The position numbers and the translations under genes were made by a program. A DNA stretch of 64,000 bases from a virus: IMG/VR virus record IMGVR_UViG_3300044811_000031, positions 23,792 through 87,791 of that record; one strand, 5' to 3'. This document shows, in pieces, positions 29,072-45,069 of this stretch (within the stretch, counting starts at the first letter, position 1; each line of letters opens with the position of its first letter). The notes under the pieces were generated by a model. It had not been told where the DNA came from and made no database searches. It was given only the letters and a program-made list of their open reading frames with translations.

Positions 29072-29102
29072 ACTCGGAGCCCCCCGGAGGGGGCTCCGGC
29101 GA

Positions 29103-29363: not shown

Positions 29364-29402
29364 GATCGATCTCCTGGGCTTGCTGTGCGGTGGACGGGCG
29401 GG

Positions 29403-29747: not shown

Positions 29748-29754
29748 GATCTCC

Positions 29755-30207: not shown

Positions 30208-30380
30208 CACGATGCCTCCGTCCGGGCGAGGAACCACGCGGCGGACCGGGACGTCCTCCGTGCCCTGCTGGAGGCCCGTGAGCCCCTGGCCCGGTCGGTG
30301 GTGCCGGACCGGTCCTGTTCGGCCGCCCTGCGCCCGTCTGTGGACGCCTTGCGGGTCTTCTGCACCTGCTCCTGCTTCAT
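30207..30380 (-). CDS. Small basic protein
   Basis: GAGGAG RBS; Arg-rich. Confidence 0.4.
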   Translation of the reverse strand: MKQEQVQKTRKASTDGRRAAEQDRSGTTDRARGSRASSRARRTSRSAAWFLARTEAS

Positions 30381-30401
30381 AACCGATCTCCTCTCACTGC
30401 G

Positions 30402-30474
30402 AGCCCCCGGCACGATTCGAACGTGCAACCTGCTCATTACGAAAGAGCTGCTCTGGCCGTTGAGCTACGGGGGC
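30402..30474 (-). tRNA. tRNA-Thr(CGT)
   Basis: GCCCCCG/CGGGGGC, anticodon loop TT-CGT-AA, TTCGAAT. Confidence 0.85.
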
Positions 30475-30500
30475 TGGCCCGGCCGGAGCCGGGGTTGTGC

Positions 30501-30782
30501 TCACTTCCTTCGTCCACCGCACCAGGACTCCAGCGCTCCGTCGATCACCTGCTTGTTGCTGGTGGTCTCGGCTTCGTCCTCGTCCGCGAAATCGAACCAC
30601 ACCGAGTGCAGCCACTCGGAGAACGGCTTGGCGCTCTCGGGCGGCAGCTCGCGGGTGTCCAGGACGTACTGGTAGATCATCCCGGCGTCGACACCGCGCT
30701 GGACGCCCGGCCTGACGTCCTCCGGCCGGGCCCCCTGCTCGTCGTACTGCTCGGCCAGGGCTTTGGGGTCCAGGGCGGTCAT
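30501..30782 (-). CDS. Hypothetical protein
   Basis: ATGA-coupled. Confidence 0.6.
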   Translation of the reverse strand: MTALDPKALAEQYDEQGARPEDVRPGVQRGVDAGMIYQYVLDTRELPPESAKPFSEWLHSVWFDFADEDEAETTSNKQVIDGALESWCGGRRK

Positions 30783-31099
30783 CGGGGCACCTCTACTTCG
30801 GCGCTCTCGATGGCCGTGGTGTGGACTCCGTAGACCCCGGCCTTGCTGGCTGTGATGAGGTACATGCCGACAGCTTTGGACGGGTCCTTGAAAGCCTGGC
30901 CCCACGAGAGGTCGAGCTGCTGGACGAACAGGTCGCGCTGGAAGCCGACGACCCGGTACGGGTCGCCATGCCAGACGTCCTGGCGGCCGATCATGCCCTG
31001 CTCGTCTGCGAAGAACGGGTACGGGAGCTTGGTCAGCTCCTGTCCGTCGTCGGTGATCTGATCGGTGAACGCTGCGGGTTGCAGCCGGATGATGGTCAT
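30779..31099 (-). CDS. Hypothetical protein
   Basis: 106 aa, coupled. Confidence 0.65.
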   Translation of the reverse strand: MTIIRLQPAAFTDQITDDGQELTKLPYPFFADEQGMIGRQDVWHGDPYRVVGFQRDLFVQQLDLSWGQAFKDPSKAVGMYLITASKAGVYGVHTTAIESAEVEVPR

Positions 31100-31485
31100 A
31101 GCGGGTCCAGCCCTTCGTGCTCACGGATCAGGTTGGCGAGGGTGACCATGTCGTCGGCCCACCGCTTGCTGCTGTGGACCTCGATGCCGAGCCCCCGCAG
31201 GTACTCGCGGGCGGCGGACTCACGCCTGTCCCAGGCGAGCTGCTCGGGGGTGCGGATACGCGCCGGGCTGCCGATGCCCTTGCCCGGCGGGTAGACGGTC
31301 TTGGTCCCCATGTGGAAGCGGTCGTCCCGGATGTACCCGCCGTCTATCGGCTTGACGGTCAGCCATACCCGGCCGACCGAGACGACCTCGACCGGGGTCT
31401 CCCGGGTGCCACGGTTCAGCGTTTCGGTGATCATCAGTTCGTCGCCGACGGCCAGCGGACCCAGCTCCGGGCGCTTGTGGTTCAT
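31096..31485 (-). CDS. Hypothetical beta-barrel-like protein
   Basis: LAVGD..VVSVGRVW; coupled. Confidence 0.6.
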   Translation of the reverse strand: MNHKRPELGPLAVGDELMITETLNRGTRETPVEVVSVGRVWLTVKPIDGGYIRDDRFHMGTKTVYPPGKGIGSPARIRTPEQLAWDRRESAAREYLRGLGIEVHSSKRWADDMVTLANLIREHEGLDPL

Positions 31486-31637
31486 CGCCACAGCGAGTCC
31501 CCCTCCTCGTCCACGGCCTCGCCGTCGATGCCCTGGCCGACGATCGTCCACTTCTCGGGGAGGTCGTCGTACGCCTGGATGATCGCGGCCTTGGGGTCGT
31601 CGGACTCGATCTCGATGAAGATCTGTACGTGTGCCAT
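31482..31637 (-). CDS. 51-aa acidic protein
   Basis: GAGGAGAG RBS; coupled. Confidence 0.55.
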   Translation of the reverse strand: MAHVQIFIEIESDDPKAAIIQAYDDLPEKWTIVGQGIDGEAVDEEGDSLWR

Positions 31638-31717
31638 CTGCTCTCCTCTCCACTGTGCTGGGTGAACCGTACCCCGGGGCTGACTGGGTCAACCCCGGGG
31701 CAGGCTACACGGGTTGG

Positions 31718-32437
31718 TCAGCGGTAGCCCTTCGCGGTCGTCCGGAAGGTCGATTTGGTGCCGGTCTTCCACCAGCGGCCCTGACTGAGCGGCGTGGCGC
31801 AGAACTCCACGACGTGGAGCACCCCGGCCATCTCGTTGACGTAGTCCCGCCACTCCTCGTAGGACATGTCCTCCGGACCCTTGAAGTACAGCGTGTCGTC
31901 GCCGTCGGCCAGGTAGCCGGTGTCCCGGTCGATGATGACGTTGAGCGCCCAGTCGGCCAGGTGCGGGGGGACCTCCTTGAGCTGCTCCCGGCGGCGGCCG
32001 GACTTCCAGCCGGTCCAGCCGTTGGCCAGCTTGTCGTCCATCCACGCCATCAGGTCGAGCACCTGGCTGGTGGCCATGCGGAACGACCCGGCGACTTGGT
32101 GGGGGGTGCTGTTCCAGAACGTGGTGAAGTGCACTCCCGCGTCCGGCAGCCGCTTGGCCTGCATCGTGTTCTGTCCACCGGCGTTGGTCCAGACGTCGCC
32201 CATGCGGGAGCGGTGCAGCCACCCGGCCAGCCGCTCGAAGTCGGCCTGCTCCAGCAGGGTCGAGTCCGAGTGGGAGCTGTGCATCGGGTAGAGCGCGAGC
32301 ACGGTGGTGTCGTCCAGGGGGCGCCAGTAGCGCGGTCCCATCTGGAAGCTCGATGACTTGTTCTGCTCGCCCTTGCCCGCTACCTGGTACAGCGCGGCTT
32401 CGTACGCCTGCTGCTCTTCCCTCGTGCGCCTAGGCAT
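31718..32437 (-). CDS. Hypothetical protein
   Basis: 239 aa; GGAGGA RBS. Confidence 0.65.
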   Translation of the reverse strand: MPRRTREEQQAYEAALYQVAGKGEQNKSSSFQMGPRYWRPLDDTTVLALYPMHSSHSDSTLLEQADFERLAGWLHRSRMGDVWTNAGGQNTMQAKRLPDAGVHFTTFWNSTPHQVAGSFRMATSQVLDLMAWMDDKLANGWTGWKSGRRREQLKEVPPHLADWALNVIIDRDTGYLADGDDTLYFKGPEDMSYEEWRDYVNEMAGVLHVVEFCATPLSQGRWWKTGTKSTFRTTAKGYR

Positions 32438-32675
32438 TGTGTGTTCCTCCTCGTCCCTGCCAGCGGAGGCCGTGGCGCCTCAACCGGGTGATCTTGTTCT
32501 TGCTCTCGTGGTCCATCAGCTTGGCGGTGGTGGAGACGATCTCCCGGTAGCCGCAGGCCAAGCAGACCAGCGCCGGGTGCTTGCCCCGGCTGCGGTCCAG
32601 CTCGAACACCTTCTGCTCCTCCGCCGCGTCGACCAGGCGGCGGAGGAGGTCGGAGCGGAAGCGGATCTTGCTCAT
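32430..32675 (-). CDS. HicA-like (dsRBD fold) protein
   Basis: Helix, ELDRSRGKH, IVSTT, KN...LRRHG pattern. Confidence 0.5.
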   Translation of the reverse strand: MSKIRFRSDLLRRLVDAAEEQKVFELDRSRGKHPALVCLACGYREIVSTTAKLMDHESKNKITRLRRHGLRWQGRGGTHNA

Positions 32676-33214
32676 CAGTCGGTGCACTGCGGGGTGTTGT
32701 GCACCCGGCCGACGTAGCCGCACGGGCACGGCTTCAGATAGGTGGCGTCGGCCGCCTTGGCCGCCCTGGCGGCGGCGGCCAGCTCCCGTCCGCAGGAGCA
32801 GAGGTGGCCCGTCCCCTTCCACCGGGGGCAGCCCTGGCAGCCGGGGAGCCCGGAGGCGCGGGCTGCCCTGACGGCTTCCTCCACGATGCCCTCCAGGTTG
32901 CGGAGGGTGTAGTCGGTGCCGCCCTCGACCCCACCACCGCGCCGGGCCTCCGCCACGACGCTGTACAGCTGGTCGGTCAGGTCGTCGCCGAGCTTGACCT
33001 CGTCCTCGGCCAGCAGCTCGTCCAGCGTGACGGAGTCGTCCTTCCGGCCGTCAGTCCACCCCTTCTGGTAACCGATAATCGACGCCTGGCCAAGGAAGCC
33101 TGCGAGGGTCCGCTTCGCGTCCTCTCGCTGCCGGGGCGGTACGTTCACCAGGAGGACCGCGTACGCCTCCTGATAGACGTCGTTGAGCGTCCTCTCGGGC
33201 TTGCTCTGTGACAT
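32675..33214 (-). CDS. Hypothetical Cys/His-rich protein
   Basis: RBS; C-terminal CxxC/HxC motifs. Confidence 0.6.
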   Translation of the reverse strand: MSQSKPERTLNDVYQEAYAVLLVNVPPRQREDAKRTLAGFLGQASIIGYQKGWTDGRKDDSVTLDELLAEDEVKLGDDLTDQLYSVVAEARRGGGVEGGTDYTLRNLEGIVEEAVRAARASGLPGCQGCPRWKGTGHLCSCGRELAAAARAAKAADATYLKPCPCGYVGRVHNTPQCTD

Positions 33215-33235
33215 CGTGCTCTCCTCTCGTTTGAG

Positions 33236-33305
33236 TGTCCTCAACAGGATTCGAACCTGTGGACTCCGGCACTAGCAACCGGCGCGCAACCGATGCGCTG
33301 AGGAC
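33236..33305 (-). ncRNA. Atypical compact tRNA-like RNA (central loop triplet CUA)
   Basis: Perfect acceptor stem GTCCTCA/TGAGGAC and T arm ACAGG-TTCGAAT-CCTGT; 5-nt D loop; CCGG-TTGCTAGTG-CCGG. Confidence 0.7.
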
Positions 33306-33435
33306 GTGCACGGGATTACGGCTCCCGGCGGCCGGTCGGGCGTCCTCAGCGAGGAACGCGGGGGAGAGACGGGGAGTGGATCTCCCGGGGGTCCTTGGGT
33401 GTCGGCTTGGGACCGGGCTGGCTGACTGCCATTCT

Positions 33436-33705
33436 TCACTCCTCGTTCAGGAACGCTATAGCGATCCGTGCGGCACCCGCGTGGGTGACCGGGTGGCTGG
33501 CCGGGGTGACCAGATCGTCGGCCTCCAGCAGGTACTGCGGTCCACGGGCGCGGGTCACCTTGTCCGCCCGCAGGCGGACGATCCACTTGCCGTGGTAGCG
33601 GGGGCCGACGCGCCCGCCGCCCGCCTTGGCGACCTGCGCCCGGATGGTCGTGCCGGGCATCACCTTGTCGAACTCGAAGTCCTCGTCCGTGTACGGATCA
33701 CTCAT
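33436..33705 (-). CDS. Hypothetical protein
   Basis: 89 aa, coupled. Confidence 0.6.
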   Translation of the reverse strand: MSDPYTDEDFEFDKVMPGTTIRAQVAKAGGGRVGPRYHGKWIVRLRADKVTRARGPQYLLEADDLVTPASHPVTHAGAARIAIAFLNEE

Positions 33706-34171
33706 CGTCTTCCTCCGGGAACATCAGGTCGAAGCAGGGACCGCAGGTGCCGGTCTTGACCAGCTCGCGCTCGTCGGCGTTCAGGTACGGCAGCGCGTTC
33801 TGGATGAACATGCCGCCACGCCAGTCGGCGAGGTCGGACTCGCTGACCTCCAGCGTGGTGGCCGTGCCGCACACCCGGCAGGTGTAGTCGCGGGGCAGCC
33901 GGGCCGACGACAGGAAGATCGTCTGCGTCTCGCAGACGCGGGTGTCGGGGCTGCCTCCGGGGGCCTCGCTCAGCCAGCCGGAGATGCCGCCGGAGCTGAC
34001 CGCACCGCTCACGCCGTACTCGGTCTTCATGACCTGCGCGGCCTCGCGCACCAGCTTGGTGTGCTCGGCCGCCGGGCCGTAGCTGTAGATCGCCACGATG
34101 CCGTGGCCCCGGTCCTCCGCCTCGTGACGGTAGACGTACCGGGGGTTCTCCAGGGGCTTCCTGTCAGTCAT
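33698..34171 (-). CDS. Hypothetical protein with Zn-ribbon-like C-terminus
   Basis: CRVCG, IQNALPYL..DERE...TG.C..C. Confidence 0.7.
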   Translation of the reverse strand: MTDRKPLENPRYVYRHEAEDRGHGIVAIYSYGPAAEHTKLVREAAQVMKTEYGVSGAVSSGGISGWLSEAPGGSPDTRVCETQTIFLSSARLPRDYTCRVCGTATTLEVSESDLADWRGGMFIQNALPYLNADERELVKTGTCGPCFDLMFPEEDDE

Positions 34172-34181
34172 GCTGTCCCTC

Positions 34182-34412
34182 CTAGTTGAACTGGGATATG
34201 GCGTGCTGCTGGTCGATGTCCCAGTGGGACGCCGAAGCGGCGATCTCGCCCTCGGGGCAGAGATCCTGGATCAGGCCGGAGCCGAGAGCCATCACGTGGG
34301 AGCAGTGCTGGCAGTCGGACATGTGCTCGATCCACATGGTGTAGCTCGACCAGTACGGGAGCGACGCCAGCCGGTGTACGGCTGGCGCCACGAACTCGTT
34401 GGGGAGGTCCAT
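34182..34412 (-). CDS. Small Cys/His protein
   Basis: H..DC..C..C. Confidence 0.55.
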   Translation of the reverse strand: MDLPNEFVAPAVHRLASLPYWSSYTMWIEHMSDCQHCSHVMALGSGLIQDLCPEGEIAASASHWDIDQQHAISQFN

Positions 34413-34810
34413 CACGCCACGGCCAGTACGGCGGCGGCGTGCATGCGGCGCTGGATGTCGGCCCACTCGTTCTGGGCGGCGGTGTCGGCCTCCGCCATGC
34501 GGGCGGCGGCGGCGCGGCTGGCGTCGCTGCGGGGCTCCGGAACGGTGAGCCGGAAGGCGTCGCCCAGGCCGTACGCGGTGACGCGGTCGAGCCGGAAGGT
34601 CCGGGTCTCCCCGGACTGCCGGTCCATCGCCCGGACGTAGCGGTCGCCCTCTGCGTTGCGGGTGATGGCGTACGGCTCGATGGTGCGGACGGTGCCGGAG
34701 CTGTTGGCCCGGGTGTAGACGATGGCCAGCGAGCGGTGCTCGCGCATCGCTCGGGTGACCGTCCGGTACAGGCTGTGCAGACGGACGTTGGTGCAGAGCT
34801 GAACTCGCAT
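34412..34810 (-). CDS. Stand-alone WYL-domain protein
   Basis: I.Y......T.RTIEPY, Y..A.D...GE.RTFRLDR. Confidence 0.85.
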   Translation of the reverse strand: MRVQLCTNVRLHSLYRTVTRAMREHRSLAIVYTRANSSGTVRTIEPYAITRNAEGDRYVRAMDRQSGETRTFRLDRVTAYGLGDAFRLTVPEPRSDASRAAAARMAEADTAAQNEWADIQRRMHAAAVLAVA

Positions 34811-34849
34811 GATCTTTCTCCTGCTCTCCTGGTCCTGCTGGGGTGGTGC

Positions 34850-34863
34850 GATTTAAGTAAACC
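34850..34863. promoter_or_regulatory. Palindromic operator-like site, copy 2
   Basis: GATTTAAGTAAACC upstream of the WYL gene. Confidence 0.6.
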
Positions 34864-34916
34864 ATCAAGGGTCCGGCCGGGGACCAACCACGACGAAAAT
34901 ACCCGGCCGGACCTTG

Positions 34917-34997
34917 CTCACGGAGTGGGGCCCGAACCCACGTCTGCCCCCCGGGGTGCGGCCCCGGCGGCGCTCTGCCATGTTGAGCTATCCGTGA
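34917..34997 (-). ncRNA. tRNA-like RNA with elongated anticodon arm
   Basis: TCACGGA/TCCGTGA acceptor, canonical D arm, 8-9 bp anticodon stem with 5-nt loop CCGCA, T loop TTCGGGC. Confidence 0.7.
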
Positions 34998-35121
34998 TCG
35001 GCTCCCCGGTACCCCGGGGAGCCTTCGAGGCTTTCTTTGGGTTGCCCCTCAGACGGACCACCGGCCACGACACTCCGGGTGTCCCCGGCGCGACCGTCCT
35101 GGTACCTCTCCGTCCCTCATG

Positions 35122-35193
35122 TACTCCCACCCGGTCATGATCCGGGACCTGCACCTTGAGAGGGTGCCGGGCATCCATTGCCACCATGGGAGC
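35122..35193 (-). tRNA. tRNA-Glu(CTC)-like with aberrant T loop
   Basis: GCTCCCA/TGGGAGT, GCACC-CTCTCAA-GGTGC, T arm CCCGG-ATCATGA-CCGGG. Confidence 0.65.
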
Positions 35194-35222
35194 TGGCCCG
35201 GCCGGAGCCGGGGTTGTACGTG

Positions 35223-35717
35223 TCAGTGCCCGCACAGGGAGCGGTGCCCCTCGTCCATGCCGCAGTGATCACCATTCGAATCGTAGCCCGAGCACTGCCG
35301 GTGCGGATGGGCCAGCTGGCAGTCAGGCCCGAACTGGCAGGTGGTGTCGACCGAGGCTCGGGGGGTCATCGTCTGGGTACGCCGCAGCCAGTCGTGGGGG
35401 TCGACCAGCGTGCCCTCGACTTTCCGGGGGAGCGCGGCACCGAACCCGGCGCGCCGTCCCTCCTCCTCGGTCAGCCCATAGTCCGCACCCCGGTTGACGC
35501 TCTGGACCTGCTCCAGGGTCGCGGGCGGGGACACCGTGTGCCTGGCCAGGATGTCCCCGGCCGAGTACGTCTCGGCCTGCTCGTCCAGTGCGGCGAAGAC
35601 GCCCGCGTTGTCGAGCGTGTTGATCAGCCAGGCGACCTTCCCGCTCATGCCCACCTGCCCCAGAGCCATGCCCCGGAGTTCGGCCAGGGCCTGGATCGTC
35701 TCGTCGCTGTAGTTCAT
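35223..35717 (-). CDS. Hypothetical protein
   Basis: GAGGAGAGATCATG start. Confidence 0.65.
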   Translation of the reverse strand: MNYSDETIQALAELRGMALGQVGMSGKVAWLINTLDNAGVFAALDEQAETYSAGDILARHTVSPPATLEQVQSVNRGADYGLTEEEGRRAGFGAALPRKVEGTLVDPHDWLRRTQTMTPRASVDTTCQFGPDCQLAHPHRQCSGYDSNGDHCGMDEGHRSLCGH

Positions 35718-35739
35718 GATCTCTCCTCGATCGCTGGGA

Positions 35740-35937
35740 CTAGCTGACCTCTACGGTGTCCAGGGCGAGGCTGAGCACCTCGTCGTACGACGTTGCGTTG
35801 TGCGCGGCCGTGGTGAAATCCTCGGCAGCCTCGCGGTGACCGGCGCGCCGGAGGGCCTGGGCGACCTTGGCGATGATGCCGAAGACGTTGCCGTCCTGGC
35901 CGGTGAGCTGGACCTCGACGTCGGGGTAGTTGGGCAT
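35740..35937 (-). CDS. Small phage protein (LTGQDGNVF.I motif)
   Basis: GAGGAGAGATCATG start. Confidence 0.7.
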   Translation of the reverse strand: MPNYPDVEVQLTGQDGNVFGIIAKVAQALRRAGHREAAEDFTTAAHNATSYDEVLSLALDTVEVS

Positions 35938-35969
35938 GATCTCTCCTCGCTCGATCTTGTGGTGCTGAG

Positions 35970-36042
35970 TGGACCCGACAGGACTTGAACCTGCCACCCC
36001 CTGTGTGCGAAACAGGTGCTCTACCAGATGAGCTACGGGCCC
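35970..36042 (-). tRNA. tRNA-Ala(CGC)
   Basis: G3:U70 pair, CCTGT-TTCGCAC-ACAGG, TTCAAGT. Confidence 0.9.
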
Positions 36043-36077
36043 GTGACGACCCCCGCAGACGGGGGCCGGTAGAAGGA

Positions 36078-36176
36078 TCAGCAGGGAGAGCCGCACTTGG
36101 TGCAGCGCCCCGCCCATTCGCCCGAGCTGCCCCGGGTGTGCTCGCCGCCCGCCGGGCAGCTACCGTAAACGATCAT
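36078..36176 (-). CDS. 32-aa Zn-finger-like microprotein
   Basis: MIVYGSCPAGGEH...RCTKCGSPC; GAGGAG RBS. Confidence 0.5.
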   Translation of the reverse strand: MIVYGSCPAGGEHTRGSSGEWAGRCTKCGSPC

Positions 36177-36243
36177 CTATGCTCTCCTCTCCGTGGTGTC
36201 TGCACGTGCCCCCGGCCGGACGCCCTTTGGCAGCTCGGTCGGG

Positions 36244-36678
36244 TCAGTTGTCGGTCCCGTCGGACCCGGTCTTGCGGACCAGCTCCCAGCCGCGCTCGTA
36301 GGTGGCCTCTACGGACAGATCGACCTTGAGGACGTACCGCGTACCGGCCTGGCCGTGGAAGCCGCTCCTGATGCCGTCTCCGGCTTCCTCGGGGGTCTGG
36401 TACTGGGTGGGGTCGAAGCCCCGGGAGCCGTCGTCCGACACGACCCGGTCGTTCTCGGTCGAGACGATGTAGTGGGTGTCTGTGCGGTGGGAGCCGGTGC
36501 TCTGGCTACGGTCCAGGTCGCGGTCCAGGTCGCGCATGTCGCGGACTCCCATGTCGTACGCCCGGACCAGGTAGGCGTCCAGGGCGGCACGCTCGCTGCC
36601 GAAGCCACCGAAGCCACCGGCGTGAATCGCCCGGAGGGCCTCGTCCTGGAGCTGCTGGAGCGGAGTGCGGTCAGTCAT
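36244..36678 (-). CDS. Hypothetical protein
   Basis: 144 aa; GGAGG RBS. Confidence 0.65.
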   Translation of the reverse strand: MTDRTPLQQLQDEALRAIHAGGFGGFGSERAALDAYLVRAYDMGVRDMRDLDRDLDRSQSTGSHRTDTHYIVSTENDRVVSDDGSRGFDPTQYQTPEEAGDGIRSGFHGQAGTRYVLKVDLSVEATYERGWELVRKTGSDGTDN

Positions 36679-36684
36679 GATCGG

Positions 36685-36888
36685 TTACCTCCCCGCCGCA
36701 TGGCGGATCATCGCAGCGGCACGGGCTTTGGGGTGCTCGCGATTCAGGGCTGACGCCTTGACCACGATCATCGTCTCGGAGTTGATGAACCGGACGTTGA
36801 TCATCCCGCCGTCCAGCACCTCATCGACCATGACCATCTCCGGTCCGTCGAAACGGTCCCACCAGACATACTCACCGTGTGCGAACAT
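36685..36888 (-). CDS. Small SH3-like hypothetical protein
   Basis: AGGAG RBS. Confidence 0.55.
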   Translation of the reverse strand: MFAHGEYVWWDRFDGPEMVMVDEVLDGGMINVRFINSETMIVVKASALNREHPKARAAAMIRHAAGR

Positions 36889-36905
36889 CGTTTGCTCCTG
36901 CTCTG

Positions 36906-36973
36906 CTGTGAGGCTGAATTGCCCCCGCCAACGGCCGGGCCCCGGGTAGGCGGACCGGCCGCTCGCAGCGAAC
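36906..36973 (-). repeat. Leader hairpin element, copy 1
   Basis: Homologous to 37476-37537 and 38746-38808. Confidence 0.75.
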
Positions 36974-37459
36974 TCAGGCTTCATCGATCGCCTTCTTGAC
37001 GGCTTCCTTGAGGTCGAAGCGGTGGGCCGCCTCCCACGCGTGGAGCGCCCGCCGGGCTTCCTGCTCGGCCTTGGCCAGCTGGACGTACTCGACCCGCTCT
37101 TCCTGGGCCAGGGGAGCGACCCGCAGGAGGTGCTCGGTGAGCTGGGTGCGGCTGCCGTCGGACCAGGTGACCAGAATGTTGCCGTTGGCCGCGTGGAAGC
37201 CAGTGGCCGTACCCGAACGGGCGTAGGGCTTGGCCGGGTAGCCGTAGCCACCGCCGGACACACCCAGCTCGGTGAAGGCCACCGCTACCTTGACGACGGC
37301 CTGCTTGGTCGCGGTGGCGATCTTGTCGATCAGCTTGGCCTTGGTCTCAGCCGAGAGGACGTTGCTCGCGACCTTCGCGCCCCAGTTGCCGAACTCGGTG
37401 ACGTGGATGTCGACGGTCTGGCCGTTCTTCTCGACCTGCCCGGCCGGGTACTCGATCAT
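36974..37459 (-). CDS. Hypothetical protein
   Basis: 161 aa; AGGAG RBS. Confidence 0.7.
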   Translation of the reverse strand: MIEYPAGQVEKNGQTVDIHVTEFGNWGAKVASNVLSAETKAKLIDKIATATKQAVVKVAVAFTELGVSGGGYGYPAKPYARSGTATGFHAANGNILVTWSDGSRTQLTEHLLRVAPLAQEERVEYVQLAKAEQEARRALHAWEAAHRFDLKEAVKKAIDEA

Positions 37460-37475
37460 GATTTCTCCTGTCTGG

Positions 37476-37537
37476 CTGTGAGCCCTGTTGCCCGCAGAAC
37501 GGCCGGGCCCCCGTAGGGTACCGGCCGCTCGCCGTGC
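37476..37537 (-). repeat. Leader hairpin element, copy 2
   Basis: AACGGCCGG..CCGGCCGCTCGC core. Confidence 0.7.
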
Positions 37538-37544
37538 TAGGGGA

Positions 37545-38723
37545 TCACTTACCGGTCACGCCCACCAGGCCCACGGCCGCGAGCGCGTCGGCGTTCATGG
37601 CGTACGCCTTGTCCGCGTCGGCGACCGTCTGGCTGAACGACGTGATCGCGTTGAACAGCCCGCCGGTTGTGGTGTCGCCACCCTTGATGAAGTGCTCCAG
37701 GATGCCGTCCGTGTCCTCCTTGGAGAATGCGTCCCGCTTGACCAGAGCCTTGACCACGTCCTGCGGCTTGCCGGTGACGGGGCGGTCGGAGCCGGACTCG
37801 ATGCGCTCGATGACCCGCTCCATGTAGTCCGTGTCCAGGAACGTCTTGACCGCGTCCCGGGTCTGGAGGGTGATCAGCTCCAGGTTCTTGGCGGCGGTCT
37901 CCTCGCTGTAGCGGACGACGCCCTCCTCCTCCAGCCGGGAGCCGAGGTGGCGGCGGCTGACCGCGTCCTGGGTGATGGTCATGCCGTTGGTGCAGACCTC
38001 GATCTCCAGGCTCGGGGTGATGCTGAAGGCACCGCCGCCGGTCTCGGAGTTGGAAAGGACGAACCCGGCGAACACGGTCGGGTTGTCCGCGCCACGGTTA
38101 CCGCTGAAGGGGCTGCGGTAGTCGCGGAGCAGCTTGGGCGCGAGCGCCTGGACCTCGGGGACGACCACCTTGACGTACATGCGGCGGTCGGTCAGGTCGG
38201 CCTGACGGACGACGTGGGCGTCGAGCCCGGCGGACTTCATGCCGGACAGGGTCGCCATCAGGACGTCCCAGTTGTCGATCGTCTTGTAGCTGTCGGACAG
38301 CAGCGCCCGGGCGTAGCCGTTACCACCGTCCTGGCCCTTGAAGGTCCGGACGAGGAACTTGCGGGGGTCGGTCTCACGGACCAGCGTGCCGTCGTTCTTG
38401 GTGAAGCCGTGGAGCTGGCCGTTGATGTTGGAGTCGATCAGGTCGAGCTTGTTGGTGTCCCGCAGCTCCCGGACGTATGCCCGGGGGACGCGGAGCTTGG
38501 CGGCCACGCCCTCGTCGTACACGGGGGACGGCGCGTAGTGCGCGACCGGGGTGGTGACGCCGGTGTCGGTCACGGCGGCCTCTCCGGCGCCCCGGATGAC
38601 GACGTTGCCCTGGTGCGACCACAGGTCGCGGGCGGGGACGATCAGGTCTTCCTTGCGGTCCCGCTGCTCGGTCAGCTCGGTGACGAGCCCCTGAAGCGAA
38701 GCGTTGCGAAGGTTGAGCTGCAT
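37545..38723 (-). CDS. DUF932/DUF945-like protein
   Basis: ARALLSDSY..IDN, AGFVLSNSETG.G, VCTNGM, H.G. Confidence 0.75.
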   Translation of the reverse strand: MQLNLRNASLQGLVTELTEQRDRKEDLIVPARDLWSHQGNVVIRGAGEAAVTDTGVTTPVAHYAPSPVYDEGVAAKLRVPRAYVRELRDTNKLDLIDSNINGQLHGFTKNDGTLVRETDPRKFLVRTFKGQDGGNGYARALLSDSYKTIDNWDVLMATLSGMKSAGLDAHVVRQADLTDRRMYVKVVVPEVQALAPKLLRDYRSPFSGNRGADNPTVFAGFVLSNSETGGGAFSITPSLEIEVCTNGMTITQDAVSRRHLGSRLEEEGVVRYSEETAAKNLELITLQTRDAVKTFLDTDYMERVIERIESGSDRPVTGKPQDVVKALVKRDAFSKEDTDGILEHFIKGGDTTTGGLFNAITSFSQTVADADKAYAMNADALAAVGLVGVTGK

Positions 38724-38745
38724 GGTGATCTCCTGAGTGTGCAGT

Positions 38746-38808
38746 TGAGGCCCTGTTGCCCCCGCCAACGGCCGGACCCGTGAAGGCGCCCGGCCACTCG
38801 CAGCGAAC
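38746..38808 (-). repeat. Leader hairpin element, copy 3
   Basis: TTGCCCCCGCCAACGGCCGG..CCGGCCACTCGCAGCGAAC. Confidence 0.75.
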
Positions 38809-38812
38809 AGGA

Positions 38813-39043
38813 TCAGTTGGTGGCGTGGCCCCGGAGTTCCGAGAGGATCATGATGCACTCGGTCCGGGTCAGGCCCGAGGTGTCGTACTCGGGGTCGCCG
38901 TGCTCCTCCTTGAGCATCTCGTACAGCCTCGCCAACGACACCTTGTCGTACGACGCCTGCACCATCTCGAAGGCCTGGAAGGTGGTCTCGTACTGGCCGT
39001 GCCCGGCGATCTCCGCCCGGATGGTTCCGTGTCGCTGGCTCAT
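38813..39043 (-). CDS. Hypothetical protein
   Basis: Coupled; GGGAG RBS. Confidence 0.6.
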   Translation of the reverse strand: MSQRHGTIRAEIAGHGQYETTFQAFEMVQASYDKVSLARLYEMLKEEHGDPEYDTSGLTRTECIMILSELRGHATN

Positions 39044-39357
39044 GATCGGCACTCCCTTGCAGCGTGCAGCGAGCGGAAGACGATGTTCATGTAGGCGTCG
39101 TACTCGTCCCGGCCGAAGCTGGCGTCGTACTTGGCGTGCATCTTGCAGAGGCCGCGTGCGACCTCCGCCACGCGGCAGGCGCCGTCGTTGGTGTCCGACC
39201 GGTCGTAGGCCGCGAGGATCATCTCGGCCTCTTCGGTGTACTTGTCCGCCAAGGTGACGCTCCGGGGGAGCTTGGCGATGCGGGCCATCAGCTCGGGCTG
39301 CGCGGAGTACGCGCTGTCGTCGTAGGCGATGTCGTCGCCCCACTCGTTGTCGCTCAT
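39040..39357 (-). CDS. Hypothetical protein, first gene of the leftward early operon
   Basis: AGGAGAGATCATG start. Confidence 0.7.
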   Translation of the reverse strand: MSDNEWGDDIAYDDSAYSAQPELMARIAKLPRSVTLADKYTEEAEMILAAYDRSDTNDGACRVAEVARGLCKMHAKYDASFGRDEYDAYMNIVFRSLHAARECRS

Positions 39358-39359
39358 GA

Positions 39360-39918
39360 TCTCTCCTGGTGTCGCTGGGGTGGTCCGTGCGGGGCGCCGG
39401 GTTGCGACCCCGGCCGTCGTGGTGACCGGCCGGTCGATCCGGGGATCTCGTCCCCGGCGTCCCAGTGCGCGGTAAGGGTCTGACCCCCGACCGTGCCTGG
39501 CGGATTGTGGCTCCGCCGGGCCGTGTGGTGCTTGTGCCTGGCCGTGCTCGCCGGTCTGGCCGGTCGAGTCGTTCCGCAGGCGATCGTGCTCGTGTATAGG
39601 TGACGCTCTCGATGTCGCGGCTAAGTACCGTCCGGGGCGGTCCGTGAGGATCACCGCTGGGTGGCTCGCTCGATCGTTTCGTGCTGGCGCTCGATCCCTC
39701 GCGCTTACCCCGCCCGGATGTGTCCGACGTGATCAGTCAGTGCCGTATGTCCTCGGCTGATCACCGGCCGTCCCCGGGCAGCGTTTCCGCTGCTGGATCT
39801 TGCTTCCGTTTTCTTGGGGAGGGTCGGTGCCCTGTCGCCGGTCGCGCTTCCGCTTTTAGGCCCTCCCCGGTTCCCCGGGGGCTCTGCCTGGGACTTGCCG
39901 CTTGCCCCTGCCCTACAA
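39360..39918 (-). ncRNA. Long structured 5' leader or candidate ncRNA
   Basis: ~560 nt between promoter and first RBS; several hairpins; no convincing ORF. Confidence 0.5.
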
Positions 39919-39923
39919 CCACA

Positions 39924-39952
39924 AATATACGGGCGGTAGTGAGTTATGTAAA
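39924..39952 (-). promoter_or_regulatory. Sigma70/HrdB-type promoter
   Basis: TTTACA-17 nt-TATATT on the - strand. Confidence 0.75.
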
Positions 39953-40106
39953 GTCTCACTTAAGCCTCTGACCTGGGGCTTTCAAACTCGTAGGTAAAGT
40001 GTTGGTAAAGTGATCAAGGCTTCGGGGGCCCTCAACCCCCATACGAATGAGGCAAGTTCACTGACCTGGGGTTATACGAAAACTATGCGAGGCCACCGGC
40101 CCGGAA

Positions 40107-40268
40107 GTTACCGCGCCGTAGTGATCAAGCTCTGACCAGGGGAAATCCCTAGCAGAAAGAGCTGGCCCACTCGTACCGGGCCAGCTCCGAAAGGCTCTTA
40201 GACGGCAACCTCGCCGTTTTGCTACCCTACGTATCAGTAACTTGAAGGATAATTACCCATAGCTACCG
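40107..40268 (+). repeat. Dispersed non-coding element, copy B
   Basis: Gapless alignment to 13377-13538. Confidence 0.85.
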
Positions 40269-40293
40269 GCTCCCCAACCGGTAGCTGACATAT

Positions 40294-40668
40294 TTATTCG
40301 GTCGCCTTCAGCCGCTGCTTCATGATCTTGTGGTCGGTTCCGGACTGCCGGAGCGACCGGACCATGGCCGCGAAGGCCAGGCAGCAGATCGCCAGAGAGA
40401 TCATCGCGATCATGAGCGCCTGAGCGATCATGACGAAGACGACCGCGACTCCGGCCAGAGCGATCATGGCCCAGACCGCGAGGACGAAGTGACCGGCGTA
40501 CCGGCTGGCGATGTCCATCTCCGGCACCGGCACCGGCGCGACGGCCGGAGGGTAGTGGTGGTGATGGATCTCGATCTTGTTGACGTTCGGCTGCGCCCAG
40601 TCCCGCTCGGCCATGTCGTACCGGGTGTACTCGACCAGCTCTGCCAGACGCGCCTGCTGCTCATCCAT
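40294..40668 (-). CDS. Membrane protein (Spd-like)
   Basis: IHHHHY.P followed by 2 TM segments. Confidence 0.6.
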   Translation of the reverse strand: MDEQQARLAELVEYTRYDMAERDWAQPNVNKIEIHHHHYPPAVAPVPVPEMDIASRYAGHFVLAVWAMIALAGVAVVFVMIAQALMIAMISLAICCLAFAAMVRSLRQSGTDHKIMKQRLKATE

Positions 40669-40807
40669 GAGTCGTCATCTCCTTGATCCTGTCCCAGTGC
40701 GCCGCTACGTAGATCACCGCGAGGAAGCCCAGCACCGTGAACGTCAGCCGCCGGTTGGCCCGGCGGCGCTGCTCCCTGCGGGCCCGTCGGCTGCGCCTCA
40801 CCACCAT
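40661..40807 (-). CDS. Small membrane protein
   Basis: Arg-rich N-terminus plus one TM. Confidence 0.5.
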   Translation of the reverse strand: MVVRRSRRARREQRRRANRRLTFTVLGFLAVIYVAAHWDRIKEMTTHG

Positions 40808-41052
40808 TCGATCCCCCCGAACAGATCGTCCCCACGGTGGCGCAGGTACGCCCGGCCGGGGACGGTGATCACCGTCATGATGATCGCGATGGCGACCATC
40901 AGGACGAGGGAGCCGACGACGTTCGCGTTGGCCGCGTCGCCGGGGAGCAGCGTCGCGAACAGGATGAGGAACACCAGCCCGAGCGCTCCGTCGATAACCA
41001 GGACGGTGCCCTTGACGACTTTGCTTACCATGATCTTCGCCTCCGTTGACAT
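40798..41052 (-). CDS. Small membrane protein (2 TM)
   Basis: Hydrophobic segments. Confidence 0.6.
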   Translation of the reverse strand: MSTEAKIMVSKVVKGTVLVIDGALGLVFLILFATLLPGDAANANVVGSLVLMVAIAIIMTVITVPGRAYLRHRGDDLFGGIEWW

Positions 41053-41177
41053 GAGCTGACACGGGTCCGTGTCAGTAGATGGGTGTCAGAAAAAGTGATC
41101 TAGGTCAGAGCCTCTGTCAGAAGACCTGACACCGGCGTCTGACACTCAGCTGACAAGGCTCCTGACATGCTCTGACA
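41046..41177. repeat. CTGACA/TGTCAG array (clt-like locus)
   Basis: 9 exact hexamers at 41056, 41070, 41084, 41115, 41126, 41139, 41150, 41162, 41172, plus near-matches. Confidence 0.75.
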
Positions 41178-41481
41178 GCCGTTGCTTGGTGACCTCTGGG
41201 AGTCGGCCCCGGAGGATGTTCACGGACCTCGTTACCGGGTCCAAGTGATACGGGTTCCAGCAGCGGGTCATCCTGCACAGATGGTCGGGCTCCAAGCCGT
41301 CCGGTAGATCATCGATCATCTCTCGGTACGCCACTCGATGCGCGTACTGGGTACGGCCTTCGATCATTACCCGGCTGTAGTCGTGTCCTGTACTGCGGGC
41401 CACCCAGCACGGGAGATCCAGCCCTTTTACCAGGCATGGAACCTCCCGTGACCGGGCTTCCAGACGGGCGAGCGGGTCCAT
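41146..41481 (-). CDS. HNH endonuclease
   Basis: HRVAY..DHLCR..RCWNPYHL; paralog of 14287. Confidence 0.8.
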   Translation of the reverse strand: MDPLARLEARSREVPCLVKGLDLPCWVARSTGHDYSRVMIEGRTQYAHRVAYREMIDDLPDGLEPDHLCRMTRCWNPYHLDPVTRSVNILRGRLPEVTKQRLSEHVRSLVS

Positions 41482-43439
41482 CAGGGCCGGTGGCCGTTAC
41501 TGACACGAGCCCTGATGTAGTACGGCGGCTTGCCGTTGACCTGGGTCAGGCGGCCCTCCTCCACGAGCCTGTTCAGCTCGTTGTAGACCCACTGGCGGGT
41601 CCGGCCGACCAGCCCGGGGAGGTCGTTCAGATCGGAGAAGTTGACGTCCATCTGGCCCCGGGTCTCCAGCTCATCGATCTTGCTCTCCAGCAGAGCGACC
41701 GCCTTCTCACGGGTCATCCGGTCCTCGGGCTCCGGCGGCCGGAGCGCGAACACGACGTCGTTCTTGGGACGGGCGATAGGCATCGACACGTCCACCTCCT
41801 CCTCGAACGGGTCCTCCATGTCACCGGCCACGGCTGCGACCGGCTCCTTGACCGGGTCGGCCGACAGACCCCGGGACAGGTACGCGAGCGTCCCGGCGTC
41901 GATCGTCGCCCAGTACCCGGCCGCCTTGCTCGCGGCTAGCTCAGCCTGCTTCTGCTCCCGGCTGAGGTAGTACGCGCGGGCCTCCTCCGCCCACTTCTCC
42001 GGGTCGGTGCCGACCAGCTCCCCGTACAGAGAACCGGGGTAGTTGTTCCGCCACTTGGTGGGGTCGGCCCCCTTCTCCAGCGTCCCGGCGCTCAGGGCGA
42101 AGCGGGCGTCGTAGTGCTCGACCGCCCCGTGGCAGAGGCTGTTGGTGAACTGCCCCCTCGTCTTCCGCTCGATGTTGCTGTGGTGGGCGGACGTCATGCT
42201 CGCGCAGAGACTGATGCCGACCGAGCGCGCGGTGCGGATCGCCTGGTCGAACTCGTCGTTGCCCGACAGGACGGTCGCGGCCTCTTCGATGTCGATGAAG
42301 AGGAGCGGCATGCCGTGCAGGGTCCACAGCTCCGGCTCCCACTGCTGGTAGCCGACGGTGCCGTCGCTCCTGGTCAGCTCGCCGAAAACCTGCGCCCGGT
42401 ACTTGATCGCATCGGGCAGGTTCCGGATGAACTGGTTGGTGTCGTCCTCGCCGTCGATGGCCAGGCCGAGGCAGTGGGCGATGGCGCCGAAGCCCTGCTT
42501 GAACTTCTCCGGGTCGGCCACGATCGGGACGACGTCGATGCGCCAGCGCATGTCGATGATCGCGGTGACGATCGTCTCGGTCTTGCCCGCGCCGGTGACG
42601 CCGGTGGTCAGCGTGTGCGGCAGGGGGCGGGGGCTGTCCGGGTCGGAGTTGCCGACGATCCACATGGCCAGGGGGGTGCCACCGGCGCGCTCCCCGGGGA
42701 CCAGGGCGGCAGCGGCGATGCTCTGACCAGGAGCGGAGGGCCCGGCCCACTTGACGGACTTCTTGAGGGACTCGGTGAGCTGGAACGCCAGGGTGACCTG
42801 ACTCGCATCCCCGGAGACGCCGGTCACGGTGACCTCGTCCTCGCCCATGCCGACGACCGAGGCGATGCGGCTCCGGTCCATCTGCACGTCGGCCGTGGTG
42901 CTGCCGCCCTTCTCCATCTGGATGGTCGTGGCGACCCGGCCGGGCTTCTCCTCGACCTTCTTGACCGTGCCGTTCTTCAGGCTGGCGATCTTGTCCAGCA
43001 GGCTGTCGTGGCCCCCGGCCGCCTTGTCGTCGTCGTGGTGGGGGGACATGGCCGCGTGGCGGATGCCCCACAGGGCGGAGACGAAGATGCCGCCCATCAC
43101 CCAGCTCTGCGTCATGCCGCTGGTCAGCGGGTCGGTGGCCGTGGCCACGACCAGCCACCCCAGCACGACGGTCGCGAACACGGTGGCCGCGTTGCGGGTG
43201 TGGGGGTGGCGCCGGTTCCACATGGTCCAGGTCGAGTAGACCAGCGCGGTGCACCCGGCGGACAGGAAGGCGATCATGACCGGCTTCCCGCCCCACTGCC
43301 AGTGAGCCAGCAGGGCCACCGGCATGACAACGACGCAGATCAGCGGTGCCGTCAGGTACGGCATCATCCGTGATCCGGCCAGTCCGCTGACCCCGAGCCG
43401 CTTGGTGCGGACGGCGCTGCGGCTCCCCTGCTTGCTCAT
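41481..43439 (-). CDS. traB: TraB-type FtsK/SpoIIIE DNA translocase
   Basis: N-terminal TM segments, Walker A GVTGAGKT, Walker B LFIDIEEA, C-terminal wHTH. Confidence 0.8.
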   Translation of the reverse strand: MSKQGSRSAVRTKRLGVSGLAGSRMMPYLTAPLICVVVMPVALLAHWQWGGKPVMIAFLSAGCTALVYSTWTMWNRRHPHTRNAATVFATVVLGWLVVATATDPLTSGMTQSWVMGGIFVSALWGIRHAAMSPHHDDDKAAGGHDSLLDKIASLKNGTVKKVEEKPGRVATTIQMEKGGSTTADVQMDRSRIASVVGMGEDEVTVTGVSGDASQVTLAFQLTESLKKSVKWAGPSAPGQSIAAAALVPGERAGGTPLAMWIVGNSDPDSPRPLPHTLTTGVTGAGKTETIVTAIIDMRWRIDVVPIVADPEKFKQGFGAIAHCLGLAIDGEDDTNQFIRNLPDAIKYRAQVFGELTRSDGTVGYQQWEPELWTLHGMPLLFIDIEEAATVLSGNDEFDQAIRTARSVGISLCASMTSAHHSNIERKTRGQFTNSLCHGAVEHYDARFALSAGTLEKGADPTKWRNNYPGSLYGELVGTDPEKWAEEARAYYLSREQKQAELAASKAAGYWATIDAGTLAYLSRGLSADPVKEPVAAVAGDMEDPFEEEVDVSMPIARPKNDVVFALRPPEPEDRMTREKAVALLESKIDELETRGQMDVNFSDLNDLPGLVGRTRQWVYNELNRLVEEGRLTQVNGKPPYYIRARVSNGHRP

Positions 43440-43451
43440 CCCGTGGCCCCC

Positions 43452-43946
43452 TTACTTGATCGTGAAGCGCTGGTGGGACTTGGCCTTGGTCTCGGACTTC
43501 TCCAGGATGTCCGCGTACACCTGCTCGAACGTCGACCATGCGGACACGAAGCCGCTGGCCGCCGAGGCGAAGTGATCCGCCGACGCCTCCAGGTGCTTGG
43601 TGACGCGCTTCATCTTCCAGGCGGCGGCCCACTGGTGACCGAGCTTGGCCATGTCCCGGGCGCCGGAGGTCAGCTCCCCGGCCGCGAGCGCGGACTGGAC
43701 CGCGAGGTAGTGGGACAGCTTGCGTCCGGCCTCGCAGAACTCGTTCAGGTCGTGCTGGTCGGACAGACCGACCTCGTCCATCGCCTTGACCAGAGCCTCG
43801 ATGCCCCCGCCGCCGGACGACTTGCGGGCGGGGCGGGACGCAGACGGACGGGACGCGGGCTGGCCCTGTCCGGTGAGTCCACGGTCGCTGGCGTCCTGTC
43901 CGTTCGCCGGGGTCGTGCCCCGGGTGGTGTTGTCTCCTGCTGCCAT
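43452..43946 (-). CDS. TraA-like plasmid transfer accessory protein
   Basis: Helical 164-aa protein directly upstream of traB. Confidence 0.5.
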   Translation of the reverse strand: MAAGDNTTRGTTPANGQDASDRGLTGQGQPASRPSASRPARKSSGGGGIEALVKAMDEVGLSDQHDLNEFCEAGRKLSHYLAVQSALAAGELTSGARDMAKLGHQWAAAWKMKRVTKHLEASADHFASAASGFVSAWSTFEQVYADILEKSETKAKSHQRFTIK

Positions 43947-43963
43947 GATCTTGTCTCCTTGTC

Positions 43964-44722
43964 TCAGGCTGTCCGGACATCCGGACGGTTACGGGCGATG
44001 GCCTTGCGCAGCGTGTCCGGCTTGGTGTCCGGCAGCTTGTCCAGCACGGCGGTGCGGATGTCCTCGTCCGAGATGTCCGGGTCGGCGGACACCAAGTCGC
44101 GGACAAGGGAGGGGACAGATCCATCGGCTGTCCGGCGGACAGGCTTGGGGTTGATCCGGAAGACAGGTCCGGTGTCCGGCTGTCCTCCGGCGAAGGCCAC
44201 GACGTCCGTGTCCGTGTCCAGAGCGGACGCCAAGGCGGACACGGACAGGGGCGGCCGGACAACGGGGGCGGACACGGCGTCCGGGGTCTCTGTCCGGACA
44301 GCGGCCATGTGCAGCAGGTGTCCGAAGACGAGCGCCGGGATGCAGGACACGGTGATGACGAGGGCGACCTGCTGAGCGGTGAGGCCCGGCTTGCCGTAGA
44401 GGTGGGCGATGGGCTGCGCCGCCATGGCCAGGAGGATTGCCAGAATGGCGCCCCAGACGGCCGTGGCCTTGCCGGGGGTACCGGGGGCCCGCTTGGTGGC
44501 TACGACGGCCGCTATGCCCGCGTAGGCGGTCAGGGTGCCGGGCATCCCCCAGGCGAGCGTCGGGCTCCACCCGGCCTGGTGCGCGAGGTAGTGCTCACCG
44601 GGGGCGCACATCACCAGGACGAAGACCGCGACGACCGGACGGCCGACGTTCAGGATCAGCCGGACCCACCACAGGTCGCGTCCGGTGTCCTGTGTCCGCT
44701 TGAACCACTTCGGTGTCCGCAT
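43964..44722 (-). CDS. SpdA/SpdB2/DUF2637-like membrane protein with C-terminal DNA-binding-like domain
   Basis: 4 TM (E..LA..AGW, P....HLL), Pro/Asp/Thr linker, DTLRKAI.R. Confidence 0.65.
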   Translation of the reverse strand: MRTPKWFKRTQDTGRDLWWVRLILNVGRPVVAVFVLVMCAPGEHYLAHQAGWSPTLAWGMPGTLTAYAGIAAVVATKRAPGTPGKATAVWGAILAILLAMAAQPIAHLYGKPGLTAQQVALVITVSCIPALVFGHLLHMAAVRTETPDAVSAPVVRPPLSVSALASALDTDTDVVAFAGGQPDTGPVFRINPKPVRRTADGSVPSLVRDLVSADPDISDEDIRTAVLDKLPDTKPDTLRKAIARNRPDVRTA

Positions 44723-44745
44723 GTCCTGGCTCTCCTGTCCTGACT

Positions 44746-44759
44746 GATTTAGTTAAATC
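44746..44759. promoter_or_regulatory. Palindromic operator-like site, copy 3
   Basis: GATTTAGTTAAATC upstream of the transfer module. Confidence 0.65.
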
Positions 44760-44832
44760 ACCCTGGATAAAGAAGTGTCCGGCCTGTCCGCTCAGCTGTC
44801 AAGCGGACAGGCCGGACACGGCCGGACACGGA

Positions 44833-45069
44833 TCAGGCTCCCGGACAGACGCCTCCGACCGGACCCCAGTTGTGGGTGTCGTGGGACACGAGGGCGGACA
44901 GGCGCGGACATGGCTCGTGTCCGGTGTCCGGCGGGCGGGTGCCCAGGACACGGGCCCGGGCGGACATGACGGCGGACAGCTCCGCAGCCGCCCGGCCGAA
45001 GTTGCGCAGAGCGAGGGCCATCTCCTCCAGGCCGGACACCACGATGTCCAGGTCTATCTGTCCGCCCAC
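44833..45069 (-). CDS. Hypothetical protein
   Basis: GTG start with GGAGG; start uncertain. Confidence 0.4.
   Translation of the reverse strand: MGGQIDLDIVVSGLEEMALALRNFGRAAAELSAVMSARARVLGTRPPDTGHEPCPRLSALVSHDTHNWGPVGGVCPGA

Follow-up and report, generated by a model that had tools for sequence, protein, structure and literature searches.

Does the half kilobase that separates a predicted early promoter from the first gene of a long phage operon encode an RNA with a role of its own, and if so, on what does that RNA act? This question is raised by a locus in a window of 64,000 nucleotides (the whole stretch of DNA that was analysed), which makes up the right-hand 64 kb of a virus record of 87.8 kb (68% GC) in IMG/VR, and whose closest nucleotide matches by BLASTN are Streptomyces phages. 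The original prediction, drawn from the letters and their open reading frames, described a strong promoter followed by about 560 nt with few reading frames and several hairpins, and proposed a large non-coding RNA or a put-like antitermination RNA serving a 13-kb early operon rich in hairpins. The motifs it named and the leader itself read on the minus strand, and the transcription unit is framed by three features:

39924–39952, minus strand: sigma-70 (HrdB)-type promoter TTTACA-17-TATATT, with the −35 hexamer at 39952–39947 and the −10 hexamer at 39929–39924; 10 of 12 matches
39040–39366, minus strand: Shine-Dalgarno sequence GGAGAG (39366–39361), ATG (39357–39355) and first gene (105 aa, no family)
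26662–26698, minus strand: strong intrinsic terminator with a 16-bp stem and T-tract, closing the unit of about 13.2 kb begun at 39952

The promoter is present where it had been proposed, and it is the sole sigma-70-like site both in 38800–41200 (0.3 expected) and in 25500–45000 (1.0 expected). Because one such site is expected by chance in the larger interval, the match by itself is borderline; a score of 10/12 was reached by 1% of shuffles of the upstream region. Transcription is predicted to start near 39917, which would give a leader of 560 nt up to the first ATG at 39357 (GGAGAG-N3-ATG spans 39366–39355), its RNA consisting of 23% A and 7% U. In a GC3 frame plot, third-position GC reaches 0.97 in the gene at 39040–39357 and in the upstream gene at 40294–40668 (minus strand), and codon periodicity is absent in every frame across 39365–40293; the non-coding gap therefore measures 936 nt. 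This agrees with the description of the leader as poor in reading frames up to the first strong ribosome binding site and as unusual for its genome, the gap being the largest non-coding one in the 87.8 kb. The promoter splits it into an upstream part of lower GC and the 560-nt leader. Extending the first gene at its N-terminus to GTG 39654 was rejected, as the added stretch gave no GC3 signal.

The unit of about 13.2 kb contains small genes without families, one WYL-domain protein and several tRNAs. A terminator scan found no canonical minus-strand terminator between 39360 and 26698–26662; the many hairpins attributed to the operon were not confirmed. A tRNA with anticodon CUA lies inside it at 33235–33305 (minus strand; called "tRNA-Pyl" by ARAGORN, 40.6 bits with the Rfam tRNA model) and is a possible amber-suppressor tRNA. 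On the other side of the gap, a 652-aa protein (41481–43439, minus strand) with a weak FtsK/SpoIIIE-like match has a counterpart at −2766 to −835 relative to the core (defined below) in a syntenic relative, L005, and a very strong terminator-like hairpin at 44775–44819 (minus strand; 20-bp stem and T-rich tail) shows where the unit running up to the gap begins.

The upstream half of the gap holds the following elements:

40260–40287, no strand assigned: 10-bp palindromic hairpin directly after the stop of the upstream gene at 40294–40668 (minus strand), from the scan for terminator-like hairpins
40107–40268, minus strand: copy B of a non-coding repeat of about 160–213 bp, which fills the upstream half of the gap
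40024–40040, minus strand: GGGGG..CCCCC hairpin without a U-tract, by sequence inspection
39966–39978, 40059–40071 and 40130–40142, minus strand: three direct copies of the 13-nt motif CCCCAGGTCAGAG

The upstream transcription unit probably ends at the palindromic hairpin. L005 carries a canonical terminator at the equivalent place, GGCCCCC-TC-GGGGGCC followed by TTTTTT and directly before the promoter module, an arrangement that supports what would be an independent transcription start. The promoter-nearest copy of CCCCAGGTCAGAG ends 13 nt upstream of the −35 hexamer, and the motif also stands beside the promoter in six relatives (L005, L009, L010, L012, L017 and L020). Cluster BN Streptomyces phages have ACCTGGTCAAA or TTTGACCAGGT in its place, ACCTGGTCAAA as inverted repeats. 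From its placement, the 13-nt motif is probably an operator for a DNA-binding regulator. A −10-like A/T-rich hexamer occurs 90–145 nt ahead of the core in most lineages, and a promoter scan that included the homologues gave clear matches of consensus quality for the window, for L010 and L011 and for the BN phages, but for no others. The phage Rooney has a second copy of operator, promoter and the first ~150 nt of the leader (L028, 55644–55797; 77% identity to L027, 59687–60067). This duplicate at 55.7 kb is devoid of core and 3' domain, and two more short promoter copies at 61.65 and 63.9 kb indicate a family of related promoters in the right arm.

The non-coding repeat is present in three same-orientation copies in the genome (13351–13563, 40107–40268 and 53243–53455), with 71% mean column identity in their alignment and long invariant blocks, for example AAGTTACT..TACGTAGGGTAG and CTGGTCAG..TGATCA..TACG..GGTAAC..CGTATAAC. 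One copy sits between plus-strand structural genes, so the orientation of the repeat follows the genome and not transcription, and the repeat may be a DNA-level site for partition, regulation or an origin.

Comparison with L005, which agrees with the window in both neighbouring genes (FtsK/TraB-like upstream, phrog_1362 downstream), delimits what is conserved behind the promoter. The two sequences are 80–90% identical solely from about 39917 to about 39690 and unalignable past 39690. Two covariance models, R1 and R2, match the window at 39704–39841 and 39802–39862, and the leader can be divided accordingly:

About 39690–39917, minus strand: conserved RNA module of about 225 nt, 38% G and 7% U, from identity with L005 and the covariance models
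39865–39880, minus strand: P1 hairpin CCCCGG-GGAA-CCGGGG, from folds of each lineage, by inspection
39844–39853, minus strand: P2 hairpin GCG-GAAG-CGC, from the model R2 alignment
39806–39836, minus strand: core GACAGGGCACCGACCCTCCCCAAGAAAACGG, near-invariant, about 31 nt, from pattern scans and model R2
39704–39779, minus strand: 3' domain (P3–P5), from covariance model R1 and folds
39358–39689, minus strand: variable leader spacer, not conserved even in the syntenic L005 and folding no better than shuffles

The module has at least five helices. Other lineages have different stems at the position of P1 (CACCGGG/CCCGGTG; GATCGTC/GACGATC versus GATCGCT/AGCGATC; GGGCC/GGTCC versus CGGCC/GGTCG), and the P2 stem reads GCG/CGC, GGCG/CGCC, GGCCC/GGGCC, GCA/TGC, GCCCC/GGGGC, TCCG/CGGA or GGCT/AGCC, depending on the lineage. 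The core forms a 4-bp hairpin, in which A39833 pairs with T39820 and GGG (39832–39830) with CCC (39823–39821) around the loop CACCGA, and on its 3' side it continues into a conserved single-stranded A-rich tail, CCNCAAGAAAACGG. The loop occurs as CACCGA, CACCGG, CACCAT or CACCAA, and the closing A-U pair is flipped to U-A in Lizz-type variants. The CACCGG form, which corresponds to a plus-strand T>C change at 39824, was found in soil contigs of three runs including an RNA library, and in several IMG/VR loci.

Most lineages form the 3' domain from an outer stem P3 and an irregular stem P4–P5 around a conserved loop. In the window, P3 pairs GCCCGGG (39779–39773) with TCCGGGC (39718–39712), and differs from its counterpart in L005 by a compensatory C-G to T-A change. 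P5 pairs GTGATCAG (39764–39757) with CTGATCAC (39736–39729) and encloses the conserved loop, which reads GAGGACATACGGCAC in the window and GAGGGAGACACGGAAC in most relatives. GGAGACA-like motifs are repeated in the core and the loops.

We propose that the functional unit is the first ~225 nt of the leader and that the remaining ~330 nt are a variable spacer. All four hairpins named in advance exist (GCAGCG-GAAA-CGCTGC at 39793–39778, GGGT-CGCA-ACCC at 39410–39399, GGCGGA..TCCGCC at 39517–39499 and CCGGGGA..TCCCCGG at 39457–39439), but three of the four lie in the non-conserved last part and are thermodynamically ordinary. Several CCGGGGA- and GACCGG-like 7–8-mers are also present in the spacer. 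ARAGORN reports a 96-nt tRNA-Arg(GCG) at 39369–39464 on the plus strand, antisense to the spacer; no Rfam tRNA match was obtained there even at E up to 10, and the call is probably a false positive.

Folding energy exceeds chance weakly: against shuffles, the initial 232 nt score z = −2.2 and the final 328 nt z = −0.9, and the energies of the P1/P2 segments are not significantly different from shuffles (mean z −0.4 to −0.8). The signal lies instead in the conservation and covariation of the first ~225 nt. The idea of a large structured leader thus stands for a promoter-proximal domain with compensatory changes, and falls for the last ~330 nt. RNAalifold on an all-lineage MAFFT alignment recovered the invariant core hairpin only, because the helices are out of register between lineages in the MAFFT columns. 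We built the two covariance models, R1 for the core and 3' domain (12 distinct sequences) and R2 for P2 and the core hairpin (20 distinct sequences), and realigned the sequences by them. Alignments fitted in this way are biased towards the model structure, and kinship among sequences can beat shuffles without any structure; read with this in mind, R1 gave 81.8% paired cells versus 69.8% in shuffles, 12 pairs changed on both sides versus 6.8 ± 1.5 (0/500) and a covariation score of 0.319 versus 0.116 (0/500; slid controls at most 0.117), and R2 gave 91.1% paired cells versus 76.5% and a score of 0.288 versus 0.056 (0/500; slid controls at most 0.039). Both models therefore exceed their shuffled and slid controls in a homologue-based covariance check of the kind that had been suggested for this leader.

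Individual positions agree with the models. The loop-closing pair of P2 takes all four Watson-Crick types among the 20 distinct sequences (AU 9, GC 7, CG 3 and UA 1), and the G-U pairs of P1 and P3 are compatible with the transcribed (minus) strand alone; P1 itself was identified by inspection alone. At the level of comparative sequence analysis, the first ~225 nt are thus established as a conserved non-coding RNA domain with compensatory pairing on the minus strand. The same evidence makes it highly improbable that the element works as DNA, either as an R-loop-primed replication origin fired from the promoter or as an array of protein-binding sites. The G-rich non-template strand directly behind a strong promoter would suit such a role, as would the adjacent lower-GC half of the gap with its iteron-like repeats and three-copy genomic repeat. 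The layout of ColE1 RNA II, about 550 nt, is superficially similar. Yet the compensatory changes preserve pairing on one strand, G-U pairs included, which DNA recognition would not select; the module is always oriented as its flanking genes are, and no AT-rich unwinding element was found downstream.

Who carries the module, and next to which genes, bears on whether it has a function at all. The first BLASTN matches, in Rooney and Wentworth, fall inside unannotated gaps of about 835 nt between co-oriented genes, and the piece common to the BLASTN-matched phages is the ~31–35-nt core GACAGGGCACCGACCCTCCNCAAGAAAACGG. BLASTN with the Rooney region extended this to nine of nine lytic cluster BN Streptomyces phages, again in similarly large unannotated gaps (cluster membership and lytic lifestyle from PMC8852317). 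Pattern scans placed the core in about 14 IMG/VR contigs, 10 soil metagenome matches and one Streptomyces genome, its near-invariance being partly an ascertainment effect of exact-pattern searches. Four loci (L006, L007, L011 and L017) have P2 and the core only in common with other carriers. Yara (L043, 1200–1575, found by BLAST) retains the promoter and 5' leader of the BN phages; the core, however, is changed to GGAGACAGGAACCGGACCTCCACAAAACCGG, the 3' part is unrelated and a canonical 3' domain is missing, making Yara a natural variant useful for delimiting the minimal element.

That the module is functionless, either a decaying remnant or a recent transfer too young to have diverged, is hardly credible on this distribution. 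Much of the core identity could indeed reflect recent horizontal transfer, and pattern searches select for identity; against this, the flanks have become unalignable while double changes keep the pairing, and all nine BN phages retain the module, the divergent Yara in its altered form.

Four complete or near-complete genomes (G000, G001, G002 and Rooney) hold one copy each. The window phage has many proteins in common with G001 and G002, and none with Rooney by BLASTP or tblastn; the module has therefore crossed between at least two unrelated lineages. Neither search detected a phage-encoded partner protein common to the window and Rooney lineages. The occurrence of the module in phages without common proteins argues for a host target.

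Among 185,579 species genomes, a 24-nt core pattern searched on both strands was found in one, in a prophage-like context. None of the other ~185,000 species genomes contains the core on either strand, and the core is therefore neither an attB copy nor a host-RNA copy or full antisense; an attP core and a host-RNA mimic were rejected with them. The single bacterial copy lies in a contig of Streptomyces sp. NPDC101227 (L011, 6380–7100), flanked on one side by a divergent Xre-like gene and on the other by the 3' fragment of a tRNA (T-arm, acceptor strand and CCA), after which comes a TetR-like host gene. The arrangement resembles the boundary of an integrated element, from which the module would read outward over the att site. 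Intact tRNA genes following the module were considered for L011 and L017 and rejected, ARAGORN finding none and L011 having the 3' fragment only.

The module has no counterpart among catalogued RNA families. A search of the whole window with Rfam 15 (4227 families) at the gathering threshold, one of the checks suggested with the original prediction, returned four tRNAs only; relaxing to E up to 10 on 39250–40400 gave two chance matches of 15–17 bits, and the module in seven homologous loci had no match. Nor does it appear to be translated. No ORF spans the core, and a protein-coding leader or micro-ORF was rejected since, in the sole frame with synonymous-looking variation, a start codon ahead of the core is missing from nine of 16 homologues; three of the variable positions in the core are synonymous in that frame, where the window carries a TAA seven codons upstream.

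The architecture, a 5' leader in which covarying stems surround junctions and loops of highly conserved sequence, is typical of aptamers, and no protein partner is needed; both points would suit a riboswitch that senses a metabolite or ion and so ties expression of the operon to the physiological state of the host. We nevertheless regard a riboswitch as very unlikely: no known class matches, the downstream genes are unrelated small phage genes without a metabolic theme, and no conserved terminator/antiterminator or alternative pairing that sequesters the Shine-Dalgarno sequence was found.

RNA-library data come from soil. Parts of the stretch are contained in 16 soil runs, of which one is a metatranscriptome, and this one has a single matching contig of 216 nt at a depth of 9.8. 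It covers 39700–39855 at about 94% identity and runs 60 nt beyond 39855, crossing a P1-like hairpin unlike that of the window and reaching a point equivalent to about 39915. It thus takes in the module of a relative, beginning near the predicted start and stopping shortly beyond P3. Given that contig ends do not define RNA ends and that DNA carry-over is possible, the contig is a weak hint of a discrete, abundant RNA.

A layout of this kind has been described in mycobacteriophages. In L5, D29 and StarStuff, the early lytic promoter Pleft is followed by about 500 nt of non-coding DNA before the first gene; no other phage RNA is as abundant and stable as the one from this region, and some 90% of transcripts stop short of the first gene with no canonical terminator (PMC5712189). 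The same source states that a portion of the region is essential, that it is toxic when expressed and that its function is unknown. The likeness extends to an actinobacteriophage genome, a strong leftward promoter, an ORF-free stretch (about 500 nt there, 560 nt here) and a long operon, and the 13-bp regulator sites reported there at and around the promoter resemble the 13-nt CCCCAGGTCAGAG motif (PMC5712189). The two differ in host genus and in position, the mycobacteriophage region lying at the genome end by that account and the module being internal. They have no sequence similarity, distant-mode BLASTN against 50,697 phage records returning Streptomyces phages only. Covariation supports a structure here, and none is met with in the description of the L5 RNA in the part of PMC5712189 used. 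High abundance and stability are reported for the Pleft RNA; for the module they are predictions by analogy, hinted at by the one 216-nt contig of a relative.

We favor the reading, to which we assign a probability of roughly 0.55, that the module founds a new family of leader RNAs heading the 13-kb operon, a regulator or attenuator that acts on a host component and whose RNA accumulates as that of Pleft does. The domain, made up of P1, P2, the core hairpin with its A-rich tail and P3–P5, would be made from the promoter at 39952–39924 at the head of the leftward operon, and would act as RNA on a host component rather than together with a phage protein. Most transcripts would end or be cut just 3' of the domain to leave a stable RNA of about 215–230 nt. 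Those running on would express the operon, so that the domain would set how much transcription or intact mRNA continues. Such a leader-embedded regulator or attenuator, the product of which also accumulates, would be the equivalent of the Pleft leader RNA of cluster A mycobacteriophages. We infer the start site, 3' end, abundance and stability, host partner and effect on downstream expression; control of the downstream operon is probably the module's role. As to how transcripts might end, the C>G skew of the spacer (C/G 1.2–1.5), which resembles a Rho-utilisation site, is the same as in coding sequence on that strand and was set aside as a sign of one; the skew therefore speaks neither for nor against a Rho attenuator.

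The RNA could instead be the product of a free-standing small RNA gene that acts in trans, for example by titrating an RNA-binding protein, a nuclease or a defence system of the host as a decoy or sponge, and merely shares the operon promoter. The module is single-copy and conserved whichever genes follow it, the first downstream proteins differing in each lineage and belonging to no families. The discrete 216-nt contig and the recurring GGAGACA-like motifs would also suit such a gene, and so would the toxicity to the host that the analogous L5 RNA shows when it is expressed by itself (PMC5712189). Two observations make this account unlikely: no terminator follows the module, and in L021 the first gene begins about 45 nt past it, the module there being simply a 5' UTR.

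The HK022 put elements consist of two stem-loops in about 70 nt and are found at both early operons. In the put-like alternative of the original prediction, the nascent domain would bind host RNA polymerase in cis and let it pass terminators throughout the 13-kb operon without help from a protein factor. Like put, the module is a folded RNA directly behind a promoter, here a predicted early one, co-oriented with a long operon, and would act without a phage protein; that the unrelated carriers have no phage protein in common fits a factor-independent RNA working on a conserved host machine, and the strongly conserved single-stranded and loop nucleotides would suit protein contact. In size and number it departs from put, having about 225 nt (some three times as many) and at least five helices, once per genome despite several long units. 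The operon also has no canonical intrinsic terminator on the minus strand for such a polymerase to read through, the RNA-library contig stops just after the module (a weak point) and no Rfam family of any kind matches. We therefore judge processive antitermination to be improbable.

Other phage leaders offer partial parallels to the regulator or attenuator that we prefer. The lambda PR' 6S leader (qut/tR') and the P4 CI and P1 c4 leader RNAs are short, abundant leader transcripts from the promoter of a long operon, and those of P4 and P1 are processed to yield a regulatory RNA. Here, in contrast, we found neither a Q-like protein nor a terminator of the tR' type, and likewise no antisense target of any extent inside the sequence.

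Non-coding leader RNAs downstream of early phage promoters are thus known as a kind of element, and it is the sequence and structure family that has no Rfam entry and for which no description was found; the literature searched contained no Streptomyces-phage leader RNA of this kind. A survey of IMG/VR lists 8,495 unnamed candidate structured RNAs (DNAVirus_n) with a mean length of 67 nt and a maximum of 151 nt (PMC10690425). These rest on the same kind of evidence, intergenic conservation and covariation in IMG/VR phage contigs, but are shorter than the ~225-nt module, which might be among them.

More broadly, and as a tentative proposal that we hold to be possible but doubtful, the module may represent a new class of phage RNAs, self-sufficient ones whose binding partner is either a small molecule or a conserved machine of Streptomyces (RNA polymerase, Rho, a ribonuclease or the ribosome). 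RNAs of this class would have moved between lineages unrelated in their proteins, would gate a long operon, disable a host function or do both, and would have the Pleft RNA as their functional counterpart.

If the module controls elongation or stability, it could become an expression part for Streptomyces engineering. The leader RNAs of mycobacteriophages are partly essential, toxic to the host and unexplained, and the module is their counterpart in Streptomyces phages. It brings with it a fold supported by covariation, a near-invariant core and nine cultured lytic phages with laboratory hosts, so that the role of leader RNAs becomes directly testable in the cultured BN phages.
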